DNA of 22,590 nt. Origin: a virus. Taxonomy: Duplodnaviria > Heunggongvirae > Uroviricota > Caudoviricetes. The notes beneath the pieces were generated by a model that searched no databases, was not told the DNA's origin, and was given only the letters and a program-made list of their open reading frames with translations. Below are positions 2,611-9,809 of this stretch, in pieces. Made by a program: the position numbers and the translations under genes. The stretch is taken from positions 1 to 22,590 of IMG/VR virus record IMGVR_UViG_2585427750_000023. One strand, written 5' to 3'. How positions within the stretch are numbered: the first letter of the stretch is position 1; each line of letters starts with the position of its first letter.

Positions 2611-4848
2611 CTACCATGTCGCATCTATGTAGAACGTTGGAGATGTAGTGGTGGACCCTTCAATCGATATTTGTCCTGTTGAAGCATTAATGGTGGCCAT
2701 TGCCATGCCAAATGAAACGCCATCAGCAGTGAACGGTACAGGGACATTTTTGGTTACTTTTGGTCTGCACCACCTCGGAAGCGTTAGAACAGTATTGCCA
2801 TTCGCAAATGAAGTGGCTGCCAGTTCAATATTAATTGAATTGGCAGTTAAACTTGACGGTGCCTGTACTGTTACGTTTGTTCCAGCCCACCATTGAACAG
2901 CTGCTCTTGGCGTGTAATCAACACGCGACCACCAGTCGATAATGGCAGAGCAGATAATTTCCGCATACAGACGATACCCTAACTGGCTTTGGTGAATGTC
3001 ATCACGCAGAAGTGGGTCGTATTGCGTGTTGAAATACTCTGGATATGGGGCCGGGAGCTGGTGAGTTGTTGTTACACAAATGACGTTATTGCCATATTTC
3101 ATCATCTGGCGTTTACCAGCTTCTCGCAACTCTGCGACACCGTCGTAGTTAGAAGATGGCTGGCCAGCCCCTCCAATAAATGACTGGCTATACCACATCC
3201 ACGGCTCAACCCAAACAGGGATACGACCAAGGCCATTGCAATATAAGACAAACTCATCTATCAATGACGCCATATAATCGCCGTTTTGGTTTGCCTGCCC
3301 TTCGTTAGTTCCGGCAACCATAATAACGATGTAAGCATCACCCGGCCCCTGAGCCTTCAGGAGATCTAACTGTTGCCTCATTGTCTGTCCGGCAACTGCC
3401 TTGTTTACAATGCTATGTGAACGGTGGCCGTTCGCTCCATCCATTAATTGCGGAATGTACGAGCTGAACGCGGAAATGAAATCCTCAGCTGTACTATCAC
3501 CGTGGATAAGGATATTAAGTGGAGGCTTACCGTGCACGCCATTATCAGAGGTGTAGCTGCATAATCCAGTTACACGCGCAGCACCTCCAGATGCCGTGGT
3601 CAGTGCAACAAACCCAACTTCGTATACATCCCCTACATCAGCAGTATCAAAGGGCAAACGTATCCCAACGCCATTCATCGTTATCTGCGCCCAGTTTTTA
3701 CCTTGCAGTGATACGCCAACGGTTGCTTTGCCCGGGGCGTACGACAGTAAACCTCCTGGCAGCGGGAATGGAGTTCCTTCTGCTACTGGACCACCAATTG
3801 GTTTCTGTCTATAAGACCACTGTGTAGCACCTGGTGCCCCATAGAACATCATCCAACCACCAGAGCATCGCAGAACAATCCCAACTTCTGAGGCGGCCTG
3901 AGATTCCATACGAATATGTGCAGAAATATGCTCTCCAATATCTATTGGTGCGAACAGGCCTGTTGTACGGTCAGTAGTTAAGGGGAAGATAGCTGCGCTA
4001 TCTGAGGATATGGTGACTTCACCTTCATAGAAGAACGTGTCACCATTTATGGAATAAACTTTACAATCTGACCATTCCACTCGCTTCATGCGAATAGGGT
4101 TTCGGTTGAGGATGGCCTGCTTAGCCAGATAATCCACTTCTCCACCGGTTGCTTTAAAGTTCAGGTGCGTAAATTCAAACGTACCCTCCCCCTCGTACTG
4201 CAACGATTTAAACAGTGAGTACAGATCACTGTCGAATCTCAGGGTGACATTTTTATCAATGATTACTTTACTGTTCGCAAGGAAAGAAGCGTTAGCAGCT
4301 GTAGACGGTACGGTGTACACCATCTGATTTTTTGAATGATTAGAGAAGTAAACATACCCGTAGGTCGCAACACTATCGCGCCACGCCTGGACTACGTTAG
4401 AATTATCATAACTTGGAATTTTTGTGATCGACTGCAAAACAAGATCTTCCTGTGAGATAGCTCCGTTTACCAGATTAACACCTCCTTGAGATGCAAGATC
4501 TTGCCTGAGTTGGTCAGGGTCATACTTCAGCACATTCGAAAAATAGAACTGCTGCGCACCATACGCATCATAAACAGCCATAGAATGGCCTTGCACGGTT
4601 ACGAATTTGGCAATCTGTCCGTTATATACCGGATATCCAGCAGCGTTAATGATGATTGGTTGCGAAACAGGAACGTGAGAACCATCTTCGTTCTCTACAT
4701 AAACCTGAATCTGGTTTTCAGTATTTACCGGGTCAGTGTCAATTTTACCGATATAAATTTTGCCATTGGCTACGGCTTTAAAAGAACGCGCCATAGTGAA
4801 GAGTTGCGAAGGCATCGATACGATCACATTGGCTGTAATGTCTGTCAT
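2611..4848 (-). CDS. Tailspike protein: P22-family head-binding N-terminal domain fused to a divergent receptor-binding region containing an SGNH/GDSL-hydrolase (esterase) motif set
   Basis: 745 aa; N-terminus [11 protein letters not shown]...[20 protein letters not shown]...[13 protein letters not shown] matches the conserved P22 gp9 head-binding domain; further downstream [11 protein letters not shown] (aa 447-455), GTNE (513-516) and DDIH (616-619) match SGNH blocks I, III and V; RBS GGAG 8 nt upstream of ATG. Confidence 0.85.
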
Positions 4849-4948: not shown

Positions 4949-5827
4949 TCAGTAGTTATGTACTGAAGGAGGTAATTCTTTATTCTTAAGTCTCATCCAT
5001 GCGGAAAGATTCGTTGGTCCGTCTGGCTCATTAATATCAACATCTCGTGTGTGGTTTATTAAAACGTCTCTCGCCATTCCGATAACATACGAGAATTCAT
5101 GACCGTAGTCGTAGCATCTTCCGGAATAGTTCGATTGAATTTGTTTTAATGCCGGATACAGTTCGCGGAATAATGCCTGTGAACGGTTAGCATAATCCCA
5201 TAGCCATACAAGGCTGTTTGCTTCTTTTGCAGAAAGCTCGTTTGCTTTCTTCTCTTGTTTGCCGATAAACTCGCCTTCAAGCACTACCCTGTGGATGTAC
5301 TCTACGGCCAGCGGGATTTGTTCAATTGAAAGTTCATCAATGCTGTCAATACCAAAACGCTGATGAACCATATTGTATGCATCGTCATAGCGAAGTCCTT
5401 TCTTTCCTACCAGCATGTTTACTGCATCGCGTAGCGGCGTTCTTTCCTCAACAGTGGTTTTCTTGCCTTTCACATACTCGCCATGTTTGCGAATTGAAGG
5501 TAGAACTTCTGCTGTTACCCACTTGCGGAATTTGTGCGGGACCGAACCTTTATTGACAGCATCGCGGCAGCGCAGAACCAATGTATACATACCTGATTCG
5601 CTCACAATGCTTAGATTCTGCTCACCACCAAGGGTGTAACTTAAAGTTACTCCCTTTTCATCGTCATCAAGTGCAGTAAGCGCCTTGCGTGAGTTAGTCA
5701 GGGTTAAAGCATCACAAACATCTTTTGCTACAAACCACGGCTCACCGCATTTGTTGATGACGAGGATTTCACTGTCGCCGAATTTGAAGATGGTGAAATC
5801 GTTTTGTGCCTTTGCTATACTTTTCAT
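4949..5827 (-). CDS. ant: Antirepressor Ant (Bro-N domain N-terminus, P22 Ant-like)
   Basis: Bro-N signature [28 protein letters not shown] at the N-terminus; preferred start ATG at 5827 with AGGA 9 nt upstream; the ORF-track extension to 5893 begins with TTG and is less likely. Confidence 0.8.
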
Positions 5828-5895
5828 GTCAATATTTCCTAATCCGATTTGTTGATACCGAAGCCCTGACTGTTCCCGCAGTTGGGGCTTCAACT
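5828..5895 (+). ncRNA. Candidate sar-like antisense RNA covering the ant ribosome-binding site (hypothesis)
   Basis: Extended -10 TGcTATACT on + strand at 5813..5821 predicts a start near 5828 directly opposite the ant start; an 11-bp hairpin at 5862..5889 is fully paired only on the + strand transcript (two G-U pairs that become mismatches on the mRNA strand); predicted length about 68 nt. Confidence 0.3.
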
Positions 5896-6093
5896 TTCTG
5901 CTCTATCAGTTATATCTTTCCCTTCATATACTTCACCTATATTGCTAATGCTGGCAGAACATCCAAGATGCTTGTATCTTATGATGTCCAACACGCAGTC
6001 ACTACACAGCATCCGACCTGTTTCTTTAGAGTAAATGTATGTTTGATCAGCGTCTGATTCGCTAATGCCGCAGAAACAACATTCTTTACTCAT
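5890..6093 (-). CDS. Hypothetical small zinc-ribbon-like protein (two CxxC pairs) encoded between arc and ant
   Basis: 67-aa [12 protein letters not shown]...RMLCSDCV with Cys pairs about 21 residues apart; SD GAGGGG 8 nt upstream; start ATG overlaps arc stop in an ATGA. Confidence 0.6.
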
Positions 6094-6230
6094 ACCGTTA
6101 TCCCCTCTCTCTTCAGGCTGTCCATCACCCGTTTAATTACTTCTGCACTAAATGAGCGACACTCCTCCTTTGCTTTTTCTTCAAGAATTTTTTCTAGCTT
6201 CTCTGGCATACGCAGTGTTTTAACCTTCAT
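6090..6230 (-). CDS. arc: Arc-like ribbon-helix-helix transcriptional repressor (below the ORF-track size cutoff)
   Basis: Hand-translated 46-aa [49 protein letters not shown], resembling P22 Arc (..FNLRWPREV..NGRSVNSEIYQRVMESFKKEG..); SD GGAGG 5 nt upstream of ATG at 6230. Confidence 0.75.
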   Translation of the reverse strand: MKVKTLRMPEKLEKILEEKAKEECRSFSAEVIKRVMDSLKREGITV

Positions 6231-6242
6231 TGTATCCTCCGT

Positions 6243-6317
6243 TGTATGTGGTACGCATACATAGTATTTAGGTACGCATTGATAGTCAATAGATACCTAC
6301 ATATCCTGTGGTAAAAA
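6243..6317. promoter_or_regulatory. Divergent immI control region: Pant-like promoter (minus strand -35 TTGACT 6284..6289, 17-bp spacer, -10 TACTAT 6261..6266), Pmnt-like extended -10 (TGgTAAAAA 6309..6317, + strand), and two operator-like dyads
   Basis: Dyad 1 TGTATG-N7-CATACA at 6243..6261 over the predicted Pant start; dyad 2 AGGTA-cgc-ATTGA-tag-TCAAT-aga-TACCT at 6270..6298 over the Pant -35; 9-bp direct repeat GGTACGCAT at 6250 and 6271. Confidence 0.55.
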
Positions 6318-6335
6318 ATTATTCAGGATGCGCCG

Positions 6336-6584
6336 ATGTCTGATCGTAAGTACAAAAACCCTCAAGTGAATCTGAGGCTTCCTGTAGAGATAAAGGAACG
6401 TCTTATTGAACTGGCTGAGGCTAATTCTCGTTCATTAAATGCTGAGATGGTCGCGGCACTTGAAGCGTGGACCGAAAAAAATAAACACATTCAAGCACTA
6501 GACCTTGCAACTATAGCATCACGATTGATAGATCTTGAACACGATGTTGAGACGCTAAAGACCATGTATGGTAAGGATAAATAA
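6336..6584 (+). CDS. mnt: Mnt-like ribbon-helix-helix repressor
   Basis: 82 aa; N-terminal RHH motif NLRLPVEIKERLIELAEANSRSLNAEMV similar to P22 Mnt/Arc; C-terminal helical tail; AGGA RBS; divergent from arc. Confidence 0.85.
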   Translation: MSDRKYKNPQVNLRLPVEIKERLIELAEANSRSLNAEMVAALEAWTEKNKHIQALDLATIASRLIDLEHDVETLKTMYGKDK

Positions 6585-6586
6585 AT

Positions 6587-6865
6587 ATGACAGATACCAA
6601 AGTGAACTTCAGAGAAACCATCTTCAAGGACTCAAGTGATGCTGTAAATGAGTATGCTGATGGATTTGCTTACTCGTCTTTTGGGGATGTCGGAGCAAGA
6701 TTTGGTTCAATAGCATTTTTTAAGCATGTTTCAGACTGGGTTAATAATGAGGAGATTCAGCCAGTTAGATACCAAATTGCCAACATTCGCATGAGTGAAA
6801 ATCAACTTCTTGAACTGGCTAAGTATATAGTTTCTCAACACGAAGAATCAAAAAAATTAAGCTGA
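6587..6865 (+). CDS. Hypothetical protein, first gene downstream of mnt (start 2 nt after mnt stop)
   Basis: 92-aa ORF with AAGGA upstream inside the mnt 3' end; no recognisable motif. Confidence 0.55.
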   Translation: MTDTKVNFRETIFKDSSDAVNEYADGFAYSSFGDVGARFGSIAFFKHVSDWVNNEEIQPVRYQIANIRMSENQLLELAKYIVSQHEESKKLS

Positions 6866-6872
6866 CAGAGCC

Positions 6873-7433
6873 ATGATTTCTTTCCCTGCCGTAAATGCTG
6901 ATCATGCAGCGGAGAAAAAGAGAACTCTTGGTCGTATGGGGTCGACAGGTGGCATAGGAGAAAAGTCCAATGCTTCGCCTCCAGTTACCAAGAATGATAT
7001 AACCAAAAACAATAATATCGCTTATCTTGGAAAACAATACACTGAGGAGCATGCTATGGGCAGCCCATCAAGAGAAGAGATTGACGCGAAGCTTGGTCAA
7101 AACAAAGCAGAAATTGAGTTAATATCTGCTAACATGCGCGCTGAAATTTCAGCTTTCAGAGAATTCCAATCTAAGCAATTTACAGCTATGAATCAGTCCC
7201 TTAATGAAATTAAGGGACAGATATTCGCTAGCAATGGCGAAGTTGCAGGGCTCAAAGGTCAAATTGATGGCATTAAAACATCCATGACCGCGACCCAATG
7301 GCTCGTTGGTGCGGTTCTCGCTATGCTTGCGGTAATCATAACGCTTCCGCAGATTCAATCTTACTTCAAGGTTTCTGAGCCGACTGCGAAGGAAGCCGCT
7401 AGTGAAACCCATGATACCAAAATAAAGCAGTGA
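6873..7433 (+). CDS. Hypothetical coiled-coil protein with a single C-terminal transmembrane anchor; alternative start at 7056 (125 aa) with SD GAGGAG
   Basis: Heptad-like region EIDAKLGQNKAEIELISANMRAEISAFREFQ..., then hydrophobic helix WLVGAVLAMLAVIITLPQI; the 6873 start has a weak RBS, the internal ATG at 7056 has GAGGAG 6 nt upstream. Confidence 0.5.
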   Translation: MISFPAVNADHAAEKKRTLGRMGSTGGIGEKSNASPPVTKNDITKNNNIAYLGKQYTEEHAMGSPSREEIDAKLGQNKAEIELISANMRAEISAFREFQSKQFTAMNQSLNEIKGQIFASNGEVAGLKGQIDGIKTSMTATQWLVGAVLAMLAVIITLPQIQSYFKVSEPTAKEAASETHDTKIKQ

Positions 7434-7461: not shown

Positions 7462-7689
7462 ATGAAGCAATGGCTCATCATAATTGCTGTTTTTTTGCTC
7501 ATTTACACTGTTTTCCCAACATTAAAAGCACCAATGCAAATAATTTCACTAGCAATAATTGCGATTGGTGCTTTCATTGCTGTAGCCGTACTTGTGTTTA
7601 AGGTTTTAAAGTTTTTAGTTTGGCTATCAAAAGATGATGGATGCAAAGTTCATCAAGAAAAAGAAGGCAAAATAACCAAAGTTGACTAA
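7462..7689 (+). CDS. Hypothetical small membrane protein (two predicted TM helices)
   Basis: 75-aa ORF with strong RBS GGGAGG 6 nt upstream; two hydrophobic segments (about aa 5-22 and 26-52); stop overlaps the convergent gp16 stop. Confidence 0.6.
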   Translation: MKQWLIIIAVFLLIYTVFPTLKAPMQIISLAIIAIGAFIAVAVLVFKVLKFLVWLSKDDGCKVHQEKEGKITKVD

Positions 7690-9809
7690 CTGTCACTAGC
7701 GAGCCATGTAATAATCCCCGTGCGGGCAATGGTTTTTGCTTCATCTGTTGATAAGGTTTTCTCCCATCTCTTAAATGCCCCAGATTGCATCAGTTTCCTT
7801 TCTATTACGCGTCTCACTTCTGCTCTGTCTACTGGTGCGTTTTGCAGGCGAAATAGCATTGATTTAAACTCAGGAGAAGACAGTAGAGCATCAGCAGCCT
7901 TTATCCTGCTTGTTTTCCCTGACATCAATGCGGACGTTATCACCCCTGTTGCGCCTACACCAGGAAGACCAGATAAGCTTGTAATACCTTCCGCCGCAGC
8001 AGCTTTTGAGGCTATTCCATAAATTTTTGCGAGACTACCCTTTTCTTTCAGAAAGTTATTAACTTGCTGATCCACAAGACTACTAGCATACTGCTTACCA
8101 GTATTGAGTCTATTCATAGCCTTAGCTGCTTGATAAATCGTATCAAGGCGCTTTGATGCATCTGTGCCAATAGCATCACGGAGAGCCTTCATATTGGCCC
8201 CATTGCGTGACATTCCGTTATACCATTTTACAAATCCATCAACTCCTAATTGCTGACCAGGTGATTTGGCATAGCTGGTAAATGCTTTATTCATTGAGGT
8301 GAGCGCAACTTCCTGCCGCATATCCTTTGGAATCGACTTCATTAATTGCCTAAAGTCGCCACCGTTTCCTTTTGCCATATTAACAACAGCACTTTCAACT
8401 TTTGGAATTGCTGATTGCTGAAGTTTTCTACCCAAGACGGTTACAGCATCATCTTCAATGGATTTTCGTTTTTTTACCAACTCCTTACCAAGCGTCCATA
8501 ATTCCCCTGCGCCATATTTTTCTGCGACAGCCTGTTGGTCATCTGTTATGGCTGCATATAACTTTTTAAGAACACCTGTTTCTTCATCCTTGAATGGACC
8601 AGAGCCTTTGCCAATAGCTTGTCCAACCTGCTTTCTAGCGAGATCTAAACGCCCATACGTTGGCAAGGTGTTTGGATCAAGTCGGTTCAATGTCCGCTTC
8701 ATTATTGGAGATAATTCATCAATTCCACCTATGTCATCAGCAAAATCCTCTAAAAAATTCAATGTATTAGTTGCCTCAATCCGGTCTCTTACAGGAACCT
8801 TTTCGGCAATTTTGTTGTAGATGTTATCTGACTGATTTTGTAATGATGAAATGGTTTTATCAAAATTATCTGCAAGCCTGTCAGAAACCAGTTGCTTATC
8901 AAGGCTTCCCCCAAATGAAGTTATCATTTCATCAGCTTTTCTTCCTAATTCAGTAATAAAACGCTTATGCGCCTCACTAATCTCCGTTCCAGGAAGACTT
9001 GCCACTGCATTATCAAGAGCCCTGACAGCAGGATTATTAGAGATCATGCCTGGAGTGGCATAATTTTCCAGTTCTAGCTCACGAATAGCATTTATCGCGT
9101 TAAAATCAGGATTAACTTCATCGGCGAAATCTTGAATAGCACGTTGCCCACCAATAAATTTATTATCCATTGCGCCAGCAGCTTTCTTTAACGTTGCTTT
9201 AGATGATTTACTACCCATCCCTACGGATGAACGATAAATATCCCCGGCACTATTTTTAATTTTTCCTGCAATCTTCCCAAGCGCTGGACCAACAATCTCG
9301 GCTACAGGGCCAGCCACAGCACCAATAGCAGCTCCGGAAGCAACATCGCTATTTGTTCCATTGGCTACAATAGCCCCTTCTCCAGCACCAAGCCCTGCGG
9401 CGGCAGCCAGCCTTGCCGCCCCTTTCGGAACCTGAGAAATAATCCCACCACCACTAACAAATGGCGCTGCTTGTCCAACAAACTCACCAACATCTTGTGC
9501 GGTTGATGGTTTTGCCGCTAACTTCTGCTGTAGAGACTGAATTGCGGCTTGCTCTTCTGGTGTCATATCCTGAAACAGGCCAACACCTTTACCAACATCC
9601 ATCAATCCACTGAGAACGCCATACATAAAACGGTCGAAACCGTTAGCATTATTAACAACATTTTCCTGTCTGGAATTTTCCTCTGGTGAAACCAAAGGAG
9701 ATTGCTGCTGTTCTGGTTGGGAATCAAGCACAAAGCCATCAGGAAGTTGTGAGTTATCAGGCTGTTCATCCAGAACAAACCCCTCTGGTAAACCTACATT
9801 GGTTGCCAT
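7686..9809 (-). CDS. Ejection (injection) protein, P22 gp16-like
   Basis: 707-aa ORF at the gp16 position in P22 synteny (last gene of the 7/20/16 trio); Gly/Ala-rich segments; start overlaps gp20 stop. Confidence 0.75.
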   Translation of the reverse strand: MATNVGLPEGFVLDEQPDNSQLPDGFVLDSQPEQQQSPLVSPEENSRQENVVNNANGFDRFMYGVLSGLMDVGKGVGLFQDMTPEEQAAIQSLQQKLAAKPSTAQDVGEFVGQAAPFVSGGGIISQVPKGAARLAAAAGLGAGEGAIVANGTNSDVASGAAIGAVAGPVAEIVGPALGKIAGKIKNSAGDIYRSSVGMGSKSSKATLKKAAGAMDNKFIGGQRAIQDFADEVNPDFNAINAIRELELENYATPGMISNNPAVRALDNAVASLPGTEISEAHKRFITELGRKADEMITSFGGSLDKQLVSDRLADNFDKTISSLQNQSDNIYNKIAEKVPVRDRIEATNTLNFLEDFADDIGGIDELSPIMKRTLNRLDPNTLPTYGRLDLARKQVGQAIGKGSGPFKDEETGVLKKLYAAITDDQQAVAEKYGAGELWTLGKELVKKRKSIEDDAVTVLGRKLQQSAIPKVESAVVNMAKGNGGDFRQLMKSIPKDMRQEVALTSMNKAFTSYAKSPGQQLGVDGFVKWYNGMSRNGANMKALRDAIGTDASKRLDTIYQAAKAMNRLNTGKQYASSLVDQQVNNFLKEKGSLAKIYGIASKAAAAEGITSLSGLPGVGATGVITSALMSGKTSRIKAADALLSSPEFKSMLFRLQNAPVDRAEVRRVIERKLMQSGAFKRWEKTLSTDEAKTIARTGIITWLASDS

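Follow-up and report, generated by a model that had tools for sequence, protein, structure and literature searches.

A probable promoter-and-operator switch between Arc-like and Mnt-like repressor genes of a P22/CUS-3-type prophage

The repressor genes and the antirepressor module

The DNA analyzed here, 22,590 nucleotides of the tailed-phage record IMGVR_UViG_2585427750_000023 (referred to below, at its full length, as the window), contains a 105-bp divergent spacer at positions 6231 to 6335, with an open reading frame (ORF) of 46 amino acids (aa) on one side and an ORF of 82 aa on the other (Table 1). This 105-bp stretch is most likely a switch, made up of promoters and operators, for the two small repressor genes on either side of it, whose products keep the antirepressor of a P22/CUS-3-type prophage silent.

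Both flanking ORFs encode homologs of the phage P22 repressors Arc and Mnt. Over 39 aa, the Arc-like protein shares 38% identity with P22 Arc, and Arc structures are its best solved relatives. The Mnt-like protein aligns with 79 aa of P22 Mnt, the C terminus included, at 32% identity, and its best solved relative is 1MNT; by analogy with P22 Mnt, it is probably a tetramer. In the listed Escherichia coli records, RefSeq gives both ORFs the same name, “Arc family DNA-binding protein.” The DNA-contacting ribbons of the two proteins differ from each other and are strongly preserved. That of the Arc-like protein is KVKTLRMP in most loci, with the minor variants SSVRFP and VSVRMP, and the segment MKVKTLRMPE is maintained by synonymous changes in alleles whose gene DNA is only 59% identical. 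The Mnt-like ribbon is PQVNLRLP in every relative for which the ribbon was printed, except L137, which has PQVNLRMP. This ribbon holds Gln/Asn/Arg, as P22 Arc does, whereas P22 Mnt has His/Asn/Arg. The roles of the ribbon residues in P22 Arc and Mnt were reportedly worked out by Raumann et al. in 1994 and by Knight and Sauer in 1989.

The ORF map, the Pfam matches, and the annotation of phage CUS-3 agree on a mnt-like gene that is divergent from arc and then ant. The Arc-homologous ribbon-helix-helix repressor is the first gene of the ant operon, the Ant antirepressor is encoded downstream of it, and the small antisense RNA sar lies opposite the translation start of ant. The whole group occupies the late-operon slot between the DNA-injection genes and the tailspike gene, in the order found in the CUS-3 and P22 records. 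The likely start codon of ant is the ATG at 5827, although the listed ORF reaches further, to a TTG at 5893, and sar is complementary to the stretch just upstream of this start codon. A Pfam search of the 67-aa ORF between arc and ant returned no match. Given these neighbors, the spacer is read here, with slightly better than even confidence, as the switch that governs transcription in a CUS-3-type immunity I (immI) module in which short boxes built around RTAY cores are the predicted operators.

The sar RNA lies opposite the ribosome-binding region of ant as well as the 3′ end of the 67-aa ORF, and it is unlisted in all of the annotated records fetched for CUS-3-type modules.

Table 1. Features of the spacer and of the surrounding module (positions in the window)
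Feature	Positions	Strand	Description
P22-type tailspike gene	2611-4848	-	ORF map
ant antirepressor gene	4949..5827	-	Bro-N, 7e-19, and P22_AR_C, 4.2e-29 (Pfam); named ant in CUS-3
sar antisense RNA	5829..5895	+	Rfam RF00262, 71.6 bits (gathering score, 43), full length, both hairpins
67-aa ORF between arc and ant	5890..6093	-	Cys-rich; PHROG 7150 (E=3e-50, unknown function)
arc-like gene	6090..6230	-	46 aa, ribbon-helix-helix fold, ribbon KVKTLRMP; Pfam Arc PF03869, E=2.9e-9
arc Shine-Dalgarno sequence	6235..6240	-	GGAGGA, by inspection
Left dyad	6243..6261		TGTATG-N7-CATACA; 7/9 symmetric pairs, 8/9 in TGTATGC variants; RTAY cores at 6244, 6251, and 6257
Box 1	6250..6258	+	GGTACGCAT, core GTAC at 6251-6254; first unit of the tandem repeat, at the predicted Pant start and the center of the left dyad
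Pant -10	6261..6266	-	TACTAT; TACTAT or TAATAT in the representatives that fit TAnnnT
Box 2	6269..6279	+	TAGGTACGCAT, core GTAC at 6272-6275; in the Pant spacer, abutting the Pmnt -35
29-bp palindrome	6270..6298		Inner arms, the two -35 hexamers; outer arms, boxes 2 and 3
Pmnt -35	6279..6284	+	TTGATA, consensus scan
Pant -35	6284..6289	-	TTGACT, consensus scan; AGTCAA in 24/26 representatives
Box 3	6290..6299	+	TAGATACCTA, core ATAC at 6293-6296; in the Pmnt spacer
Pmnt -10	6302..6307	+	TATCCT, 17 bp from the -35
mnt Shine-Dalgarno sequence	6325..6328	+	AGGA, 7 nucleotides before the ATG, by inspection
mnt-like gene	6336..6584	+	82 aa, ribbon-helix-helix domain with C-terminal helical extension, ribbon PQVNLRLP; Pfam Arc, E=3.1e-10
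92-aa ORF after the mnt-like gene	6587-6865		PHROG 4231
DNA-transfer protein gene	7686-9809	-	ORF map

Promoters and repeated boxes in a conserved core

The spacer was compared with those of relatives drawn from 80 Mnt-anchored loci on viral contigs, 18 loci in bacterial genomes, and 80 Arc-anchored loci. Counts are given for a reduced set of 26 representative spacers, any two of which differ at more than 5 positions. A 65-bp core (6243 to 6307) matches that of the window at 77 to 100% identity in relatives in which the coding DNA of arc and mnt is only 52 to 78% identical. In the comparison with the SEN22 and L007-type alleles, conservation sets in exactly at position 6243, and both the 5′ leader (6231 to 6242) and arc have diverged.

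This core contains two predicted sigma-70 promoters. For the leftward one, Pant, the initial annotation had proposed the hexamers TTGACT and TACTAT with a 17-bp spacer, and a consensus scan recovered precisely this promoter at 6289 to 6261. Its -10 hexamer follows the pattern TAnnnT in 23/26 representatives, a pattern from which L066, with CACTAT, departs. From the hexamers, the Pant start is predicted near 6254. The rightward promoter did not fare as well. The extended -10 element TGgTAAAAA that had been proposed for it is present at 6309 to 6317, but TGnTA occurs at this place in only 3 of the 26 representatives. Conversely, the hexamer at 6302 to 6307 follows TAnnnT in 25/26 and has TTGATA or TTGCTA 17 bp upstream in 24/26. 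The mnt promoter, Pmnt, is therefore most likely TTGATA-17-TATCCT (6279 to 6307) rather than the extended -10 element, and is likely the back-to-back partner of Pant. The forms taken by the 6302 to 6307 hexamer (TATCCT, TATTCT, TAACAT, TACCAT, TAATCT, TAATAT, TACTAT, TAGTAT, and TACTCT) differ at the inner bases, and the information content peaks at hexamer positions 1, 2, and 6. The predicted Pmnt start falls near 6314, within an A-run. In this geometry, the -35 hexamers of the two promoters stand back to back and share a single base, 6284.

The second recurrent feature of the core is a short box with the approximate consensus WGRTACGCA. Three copies, with cores at 6251, 6272, and 6293, are spaced 21 bp apart, that is, by two helical turns. 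An RTAY core is found at 6272 in all 26 representatives, at 6293 in 25, and at 6251 in 21, and two further cores within the left dyad, at 6244 and 6257, are found in 18 each. Box 2 is the stretch of highest information content outside the stretch that anchors the alignment. The 21-bp phasing is kept in most representatives; in L139, L144, and L070, boxes 1 and 2 are 20 bp apart. Box 3 takes several forms. Several relatives carry a direct copy of box 2, TAGGTACGCA; L095 has TAGGTACCTA, a perfect palindrome of 10 bp; and L066 has CACGTACCTA. Many relatives have all three boxes as direct repeats. Boxes 2 and 3 form the outer arms of the 29-bp palindrome and the form of box 3 varies, so that the relative orientation of the two is not fixed across relatives. 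The three regularly spaced RTAY cores lie on one face of the DNA and overlap predicted promoter elements, namely the start of Pant, its spacer, and the spacer of Pmnt. Ribbon-helix-helix operators are usually built in this way, from 4-bp cores that are set at regular intervals and read in either orientation (Zampini and Hayes 2012, PMC3413123). A strict array of 7-bp heptads, as in the omega operators, was considered and not adopted; the cores at 6244, 6251, and 6257 fit it only partly.

The symmetric and repeated elements were evaluated against 2000 dinucleotide-preserving shuffles of the spacer. All of the motifs named in the initial annotation were located where it had placed them: the dyad TGTATG-N7-CATACA over the predicted Pant start, the 29-bp imperfect palindrome AGGTAcgcATTGAtagTCAATagaTACCT, centered at 6284 over the Pant -35, and the 9-bp direct repeat GGTACGCAT at 6250 to 6258 and 6271 to 6279. 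A perfect 6-bp dyad appears in 29% of the shuffles, a palindrome with 10/14 symmetric pairs in 12%, and a 9-bp exact repeat in 3.5%. A 21-bp tandem repeat that had not been named, 6250 to 6270 followed by 6271 to 6291 with 16/21 matches, appears in none of the 2000. On the single sequence, the tandem repeat is significant and the dyads alone are not. A palindrome scan also paired arms at 6265 to 6282 and 6286 to 6303, which are 78% complementary. The inner arms of the 29-bp palindrome, ATTGA/TCAAT (ATTGAtagTCAAT), arise because the -35 hexamers TTGATA (plus strand) and TTGACT (minus strand) stand back to back. In the whole window, no exact copy of the motifs was found elsewhere, and no further box or dyad copies beyond those expected by chance. 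The left dyad was also flagged by a plus-strand scan as a possible terminator or RNA hairpin. This was rejected by inference: with its right arm upstream of the predicted Pant start and all of it upstream of Pmnt, the dyad would be in neither transcript.

Assignment of the boxes to a repressor

The boxes are bounded by two ribbon-helix-helix genes, and loci that carry only one of the two genes bear on the question of which protein reads them. Four loci from Providencia and Moellerella (L088-L091) carry a solitary mnt-like gene, with no arc or ant within 1.5 kb. The encoded protein is about 50% identical to that of the window and has the same ribbon. Upstream of the gene, these loci keep GATACCTAC, GGTACGCAT, and GATACCTAA, with cores 11 and 10 bp apart, as well as TGTATAcaTATACA; GGTACGCAT-TGATA and GATACCTA are both preserved. 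Their promoter is TTGATA-17-TAGAAT, and the Pant -35 half has been deleted. Because solitary mnt-like loci keep the boxes without arc or ant, the Mnt-like repressor is the most likely box reader, an assignment in which we place a little more belief than doubt. Candidate sites for the Arc-like protein would then be the central -35 palindrome, the ATAG repeats (6261, 6282, and 6289), and the arms of the dyad.

Several points weigh against this assignment. The solitary loci are close relatives of one another and so amount to about one independent observation. Both ribbons are conserved in every arc-containing locus, and covariation therefore cannot separate the sites of the two proteins. Indeed, every distinct locus printed from the 80 Arc-anchored loci fetched pairs arc with a Mnt-like protein carrying PQVNLRLP or PQVNLRMP, so that no natural swap was found in this set, and no covariation was seen between the type of Arc ribbon (KVKTLRMP, SSVRFP, or VSVRMP) and the spacer sequence. 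The promoters and start sites are consensus based. The half-sites of P22 Mnt are about one helical turn apart, and the 21-bp spacing, twice that distance, would require a flexible tetramer. In Xenorhabdus (L096 and L097), a Mnt paralog with a Gln/Asn/Arg ribbon is the second gene, and the spacers are without RTAC boxes. Finally, ribbons with a central Thr, those of MetJ and CopG, read palindromic tetramers (PMC3413123); the Arc-like ribbon (Val, Thr, Arg) has a central Thr and GTAC is palindromic, a combination that favors the opposite assignment, considered below.

If the boxes are read by the Mnt-like protein, the switch can be outlined by analogy with P22. Pant would drive arc, the 67-aa ORF, and ant leftward, and Pmnt would drive the mnt-like maintenance repressor rightward. 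After infection, the Arc-like protein and Ant would be made from Pant first; the Arc-like protein would then act at an overlapping site in the core to turn off Pant and perhaps also Pmnt. Once lysogeny is established, binding of the Mnt-like protein to the strong box 1 cluster together with box 2 would block Pant and keep ant silent. At higher concentrations of the Mnt-like protein, the weaker box 3 would be occupied as well, limiting the repressor’s own promoter by negative autoregulation, and sar would add antisense control of ant translation.

The alternative that survives best, although we consider it unlikely, is the one put forward in the initial annotation. The left dyad would be the operator of the Mnt-like protein, the 29-bp palindrome would be an Arc-like operator that shuts both promoters, and the GGTACGCAT shared between them would be incidental. 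The positions of the two elements parallel those in P22, where Omnt lies over the Pant start and Oarc within both promoters; the conserved block begins exactly at the arm of the left dyad; and variants with better symmetry exist, namely TGTATGC-GGTAC-GCATACA, with 8/9 symmetric pairs in several relatives, and L066, in which an altered right arm yields 10/11 symmetric pairs, GTACGTATTGA-tag-TCAACACGTAC. However, neither dyad exceeds what the shuffles produce, the -35 hexamers of the two promoters account for the inner arms of the palindrome, and in many relatives box 3 copies box 2 directly rather than in inverted form. Moreover, one and the same 9-mer would be part of both supposed operators, for proteins with different ribbons, and the boxes persist in loci without an Arc-like protein. 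Of the architecture claimed for Arc and Mnt operators, the immI divergent region between Arc and Mnt homologs, with sar and ant downstream, holds. The assignment of one operator to each repressor is only one possible reading because the arms of the palindrome are -35 hexamers and box copies. The initial annotation is right in kind but wrong or incomplete on three details, namely which promoter serves mnt, what makes up the palindrome, and which box is repeated.

The opposite assignment, in which the Arc-like protein (Val, Thr, Arg) reads the GTAC boxes and the Mnt-like protein (Gln, Asn, Arg) reads the TGTAT/ATACA arms and TAG flanks, appears improbable, even though a number of observations agree with it. 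Boxes 2 and 3 start with TAGG and TAGA, and TAGA boxes are what the Gln/Asn/Arg ribbon of P22 Arc recognizes. The distant locus L102, in which both ribbons are of the Gln/Asn/Arg type, has ATACAT/ATGTAT palindromes and no GGTACG, and the TGTATAcaTATACA palindrome is preserved in the solitary mnt-like loci. A Thr at position 4 of the ribbon is associated with palindromic tetramer cores, ACGT for MetJ and TGCA for CopG (PMC3413123). Against this assignment, the solitary loci keep three G(G/A)TAC(C/G) boxes in the absence of an Arc-like gene, and their sole TAG lies inside the -10 hexamer; in addition, loci with the other Arc ribbons (SSVRFP and VSVRMP) carry the same boxes.

Least credible by far is the view that the spacer has no dedicated operators and that its conservation reflects two promoters plus a recombination “boundary sequence” of mosaic modules, with dyads and repeats as by-products: the CUS-3 record does annotate 6505 to 6986 as “bsq2; boundary sequence,” mosaic joints do lie at or near the core edges, and each dyad is within chance, but conservation reaches past the hexamers into the transcribed leader (6243 to 6248) and both promoter spacers, the 21-bp phasing of the boxes is mostly kept and the tandem repeat is absent from all shuffles, and the spacer is flanked by two DNA-binding repressor homologs whose ribbons are under purifying selection.

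Returning to the Mnt-like protein as the box reader, a broader interpretation can be offered as a tentative proposal that we would not yet expect to hold as a whole. The recognition styles would be swapped relative to P22: the Mnt homolog, with an Arc-type ribbon on a tetrameric Mnt scaffold, would read WGRTACGCA three times at intervals of two turns and thereby grade both divergent promoters; the Arc homolog, with a Lys-Thr-x-Arg ribbon resembling those of MetJ, CopG, and omega, would read different, overlapping sites; and the ribbon together with the spacer would be an exchangeable cassette among P22-like prophages. Knight and Sauer are said to have engineered an Arc/Mnt hybrid, of which the Mnt homolog would be the natural counterpart.

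In the solitary loci (L088-L091, 1405 to 1500), the sequence to the left of the TGTATAcaTATACA palindrome is different in each genome, as if the palindrome marked the edge of a mobile cassette.

Relation to P22, CUS-3, and other phages

The module shares with P22 immI the divergent mnt facing arc and ant, the sar RNA antisense to the ant start, the slot just before the tailspike gene, a symmetric element over the Pant start and another within the promoter core, and repressors that are both homologous, Mnt over its full length. The differences concern the control region itself. In P22, Pant (1294 to 1322) and Pmnt (1299 to 1327 of L004) fully overlap, the -10 of one falling on the -35 of its partner, whereas in the window, they are back to back; the start sites are roughly 37 bp apart in P22, as implied by the annotated hexamers, compared with a predicted distance of about 60 bp here. 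P22 has two unrelated palindromes, and the window has one box repeated three times at 21-bp phasing, with a dyad around the first copy. That the spacer sequence differs from the P22 operators, as the initial annotation had stated, is borne out: the best ungapped matches are 12/21 to Oarc (ATGATAGAAGCACTCTACTAT) and 9/17 to Omnt (AGGTCCACGGTGGACCT), scores reached by 40% and 63% of the shuffles, respectively. The ribbons differ as well, with Gln-Asn-Arg in the Mnt homolog in place of the His-Asn-Arg of P22 Mnt and Val-Thr-Arg in the Arc homolog, which also lacks the N-terminal arm of P22 Arc. Unlike P22, the window has the extra 67-aa ORF between arc and ant. Gene content, sar, and location match those of P22 immI, and promoter geometry and operator sequences do not; the region thus probably operates as P22 immI does, as a distinct variant of it.

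Essentially the same module is the “ant moron” of the E. coli K1 phage CUS-3 (CP000711.1), with 95.6% DNA identity over 5880 to 6581 and a control region that differs at a few bases. CUS-3 has a second mnt paralog where the window has the 92-aa ORF. In the CUS-3 record, the arc-like and 67-aa ORFs are uncalled and lie inside the feature annotated as “bsq2; boundary sequence” (L001, 3957 to 4438). CUS-3 and HS-1 were described as apparently lacking arc and therefore having to control ant differently (Villafane et al. 2008, PMC2629481). This view of CUS-3-type modules appears to reflect an annotation gap, as a conserved Arc homolog and sar are present. No experimental work on CUS-3-type immI operators was found in the searchable literature. 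The Protein Data Bank entry 9PIO was considered as possibly relevant and set aside, being a ClpXP substrate study.

Compared with the operator arrays of ParG, omega, MetJ, and CopG, the boxes have in common short 4-bp cores that are regularly arranged in either orientation; such arrays are bound by cooperative dimers, and ribbon positions 2, 4, and 6 set the specificity (PMC3413123). The cores of those arrays are about 7 to 9 bp apart, whereas the best-conserved predicted cores of the window are 21 bp apart, with tighter spacings, of 7 and 6 bp, confined to the left dyad.

The same arrangement of mnt facing arc, a small ORF, and ant in the same genomic slot occurs in Salmonella phage Emek and Escherichia phage 611R6. 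Emek combines other ribbons with a spacer that contains TAGTAC-c-GTACTA and CGTACTACTA. In 611R6 (L104, 2001 to 2262), arc has a C-terminal half almost identical to that of the window, but the ribbon and the spacer differ, the latter containing GTGAT/ATCAC repeats of an omega-type, heptad-like arrangement; a mosaic joint thus lies inside arc. Because 611R6 and Emek differ from the window in both, ribbon and spacer seem to travel together as one specificity cassette. In both phages, the slot of the 67-aa ORF is occupied by an unrelated ORF of 73 aa (L103, 1784 to 2005; L104, 1783 to 2004).

Matches to the arc-spacer-mnt segment were found in 567 of 5426 complete E. coli genomes (∼10%), and 111 of the 567 cover at least 80% of the query; some of the strains match the segment (6090 to 6584) at 100% identity. 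The module, present in about 1 in 10 complete E. coli genomes, would control an antirepressor able to trigger prophage induction and prophage cross-talk. Its control region is nothing out of the ordinary: it belongs to a common prophage module and is a distinct variant of the known P22 immI switch, with a predicted operator specificity of its own. The P22 gene set is combined here with other ribbons, boxes, and promoter geometry, and nothing points to a new kind of mechanism. For the evolution of ribbon-helix-helix specificity and operator spacing, the module offers a compact natural test case.

Some further observations were made on mnt-like genes in the relatives. In RefSeq phage records and PHROGs, Mnt-like repressors are labeled “partition protein ATPase” (L002, 2618 to 2875, SEN22; L103, 2254 to 2496, Emek; PHROGs 795 and 2685). 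This label looks like a propagated misnomer for a ribbon-helix-helix protein of 80 to 85 aa. Tandem mnt paralogs occur in some phages (L020 and L032, upstream of 2001; L001, 4457 to 4986; L096 and L097, 1245 to 1740). In L020 and L032, the junction between the paralogs repeats ATTATTCAGGATG, as found upstream of mnt in the window, which suggests that mnt was duplicated there by recombination at the ATTATTCAGGATG site. Finally, a distant arc/mnt-like pair in an Armatimonadia metagenome-assembled genome (L101, ∼1400 to 1500) has a spacer with three palindromes of the GGACCACCGTGGTCC type, close to the P22 Mnt operator GGTCCACGGTGGACC.

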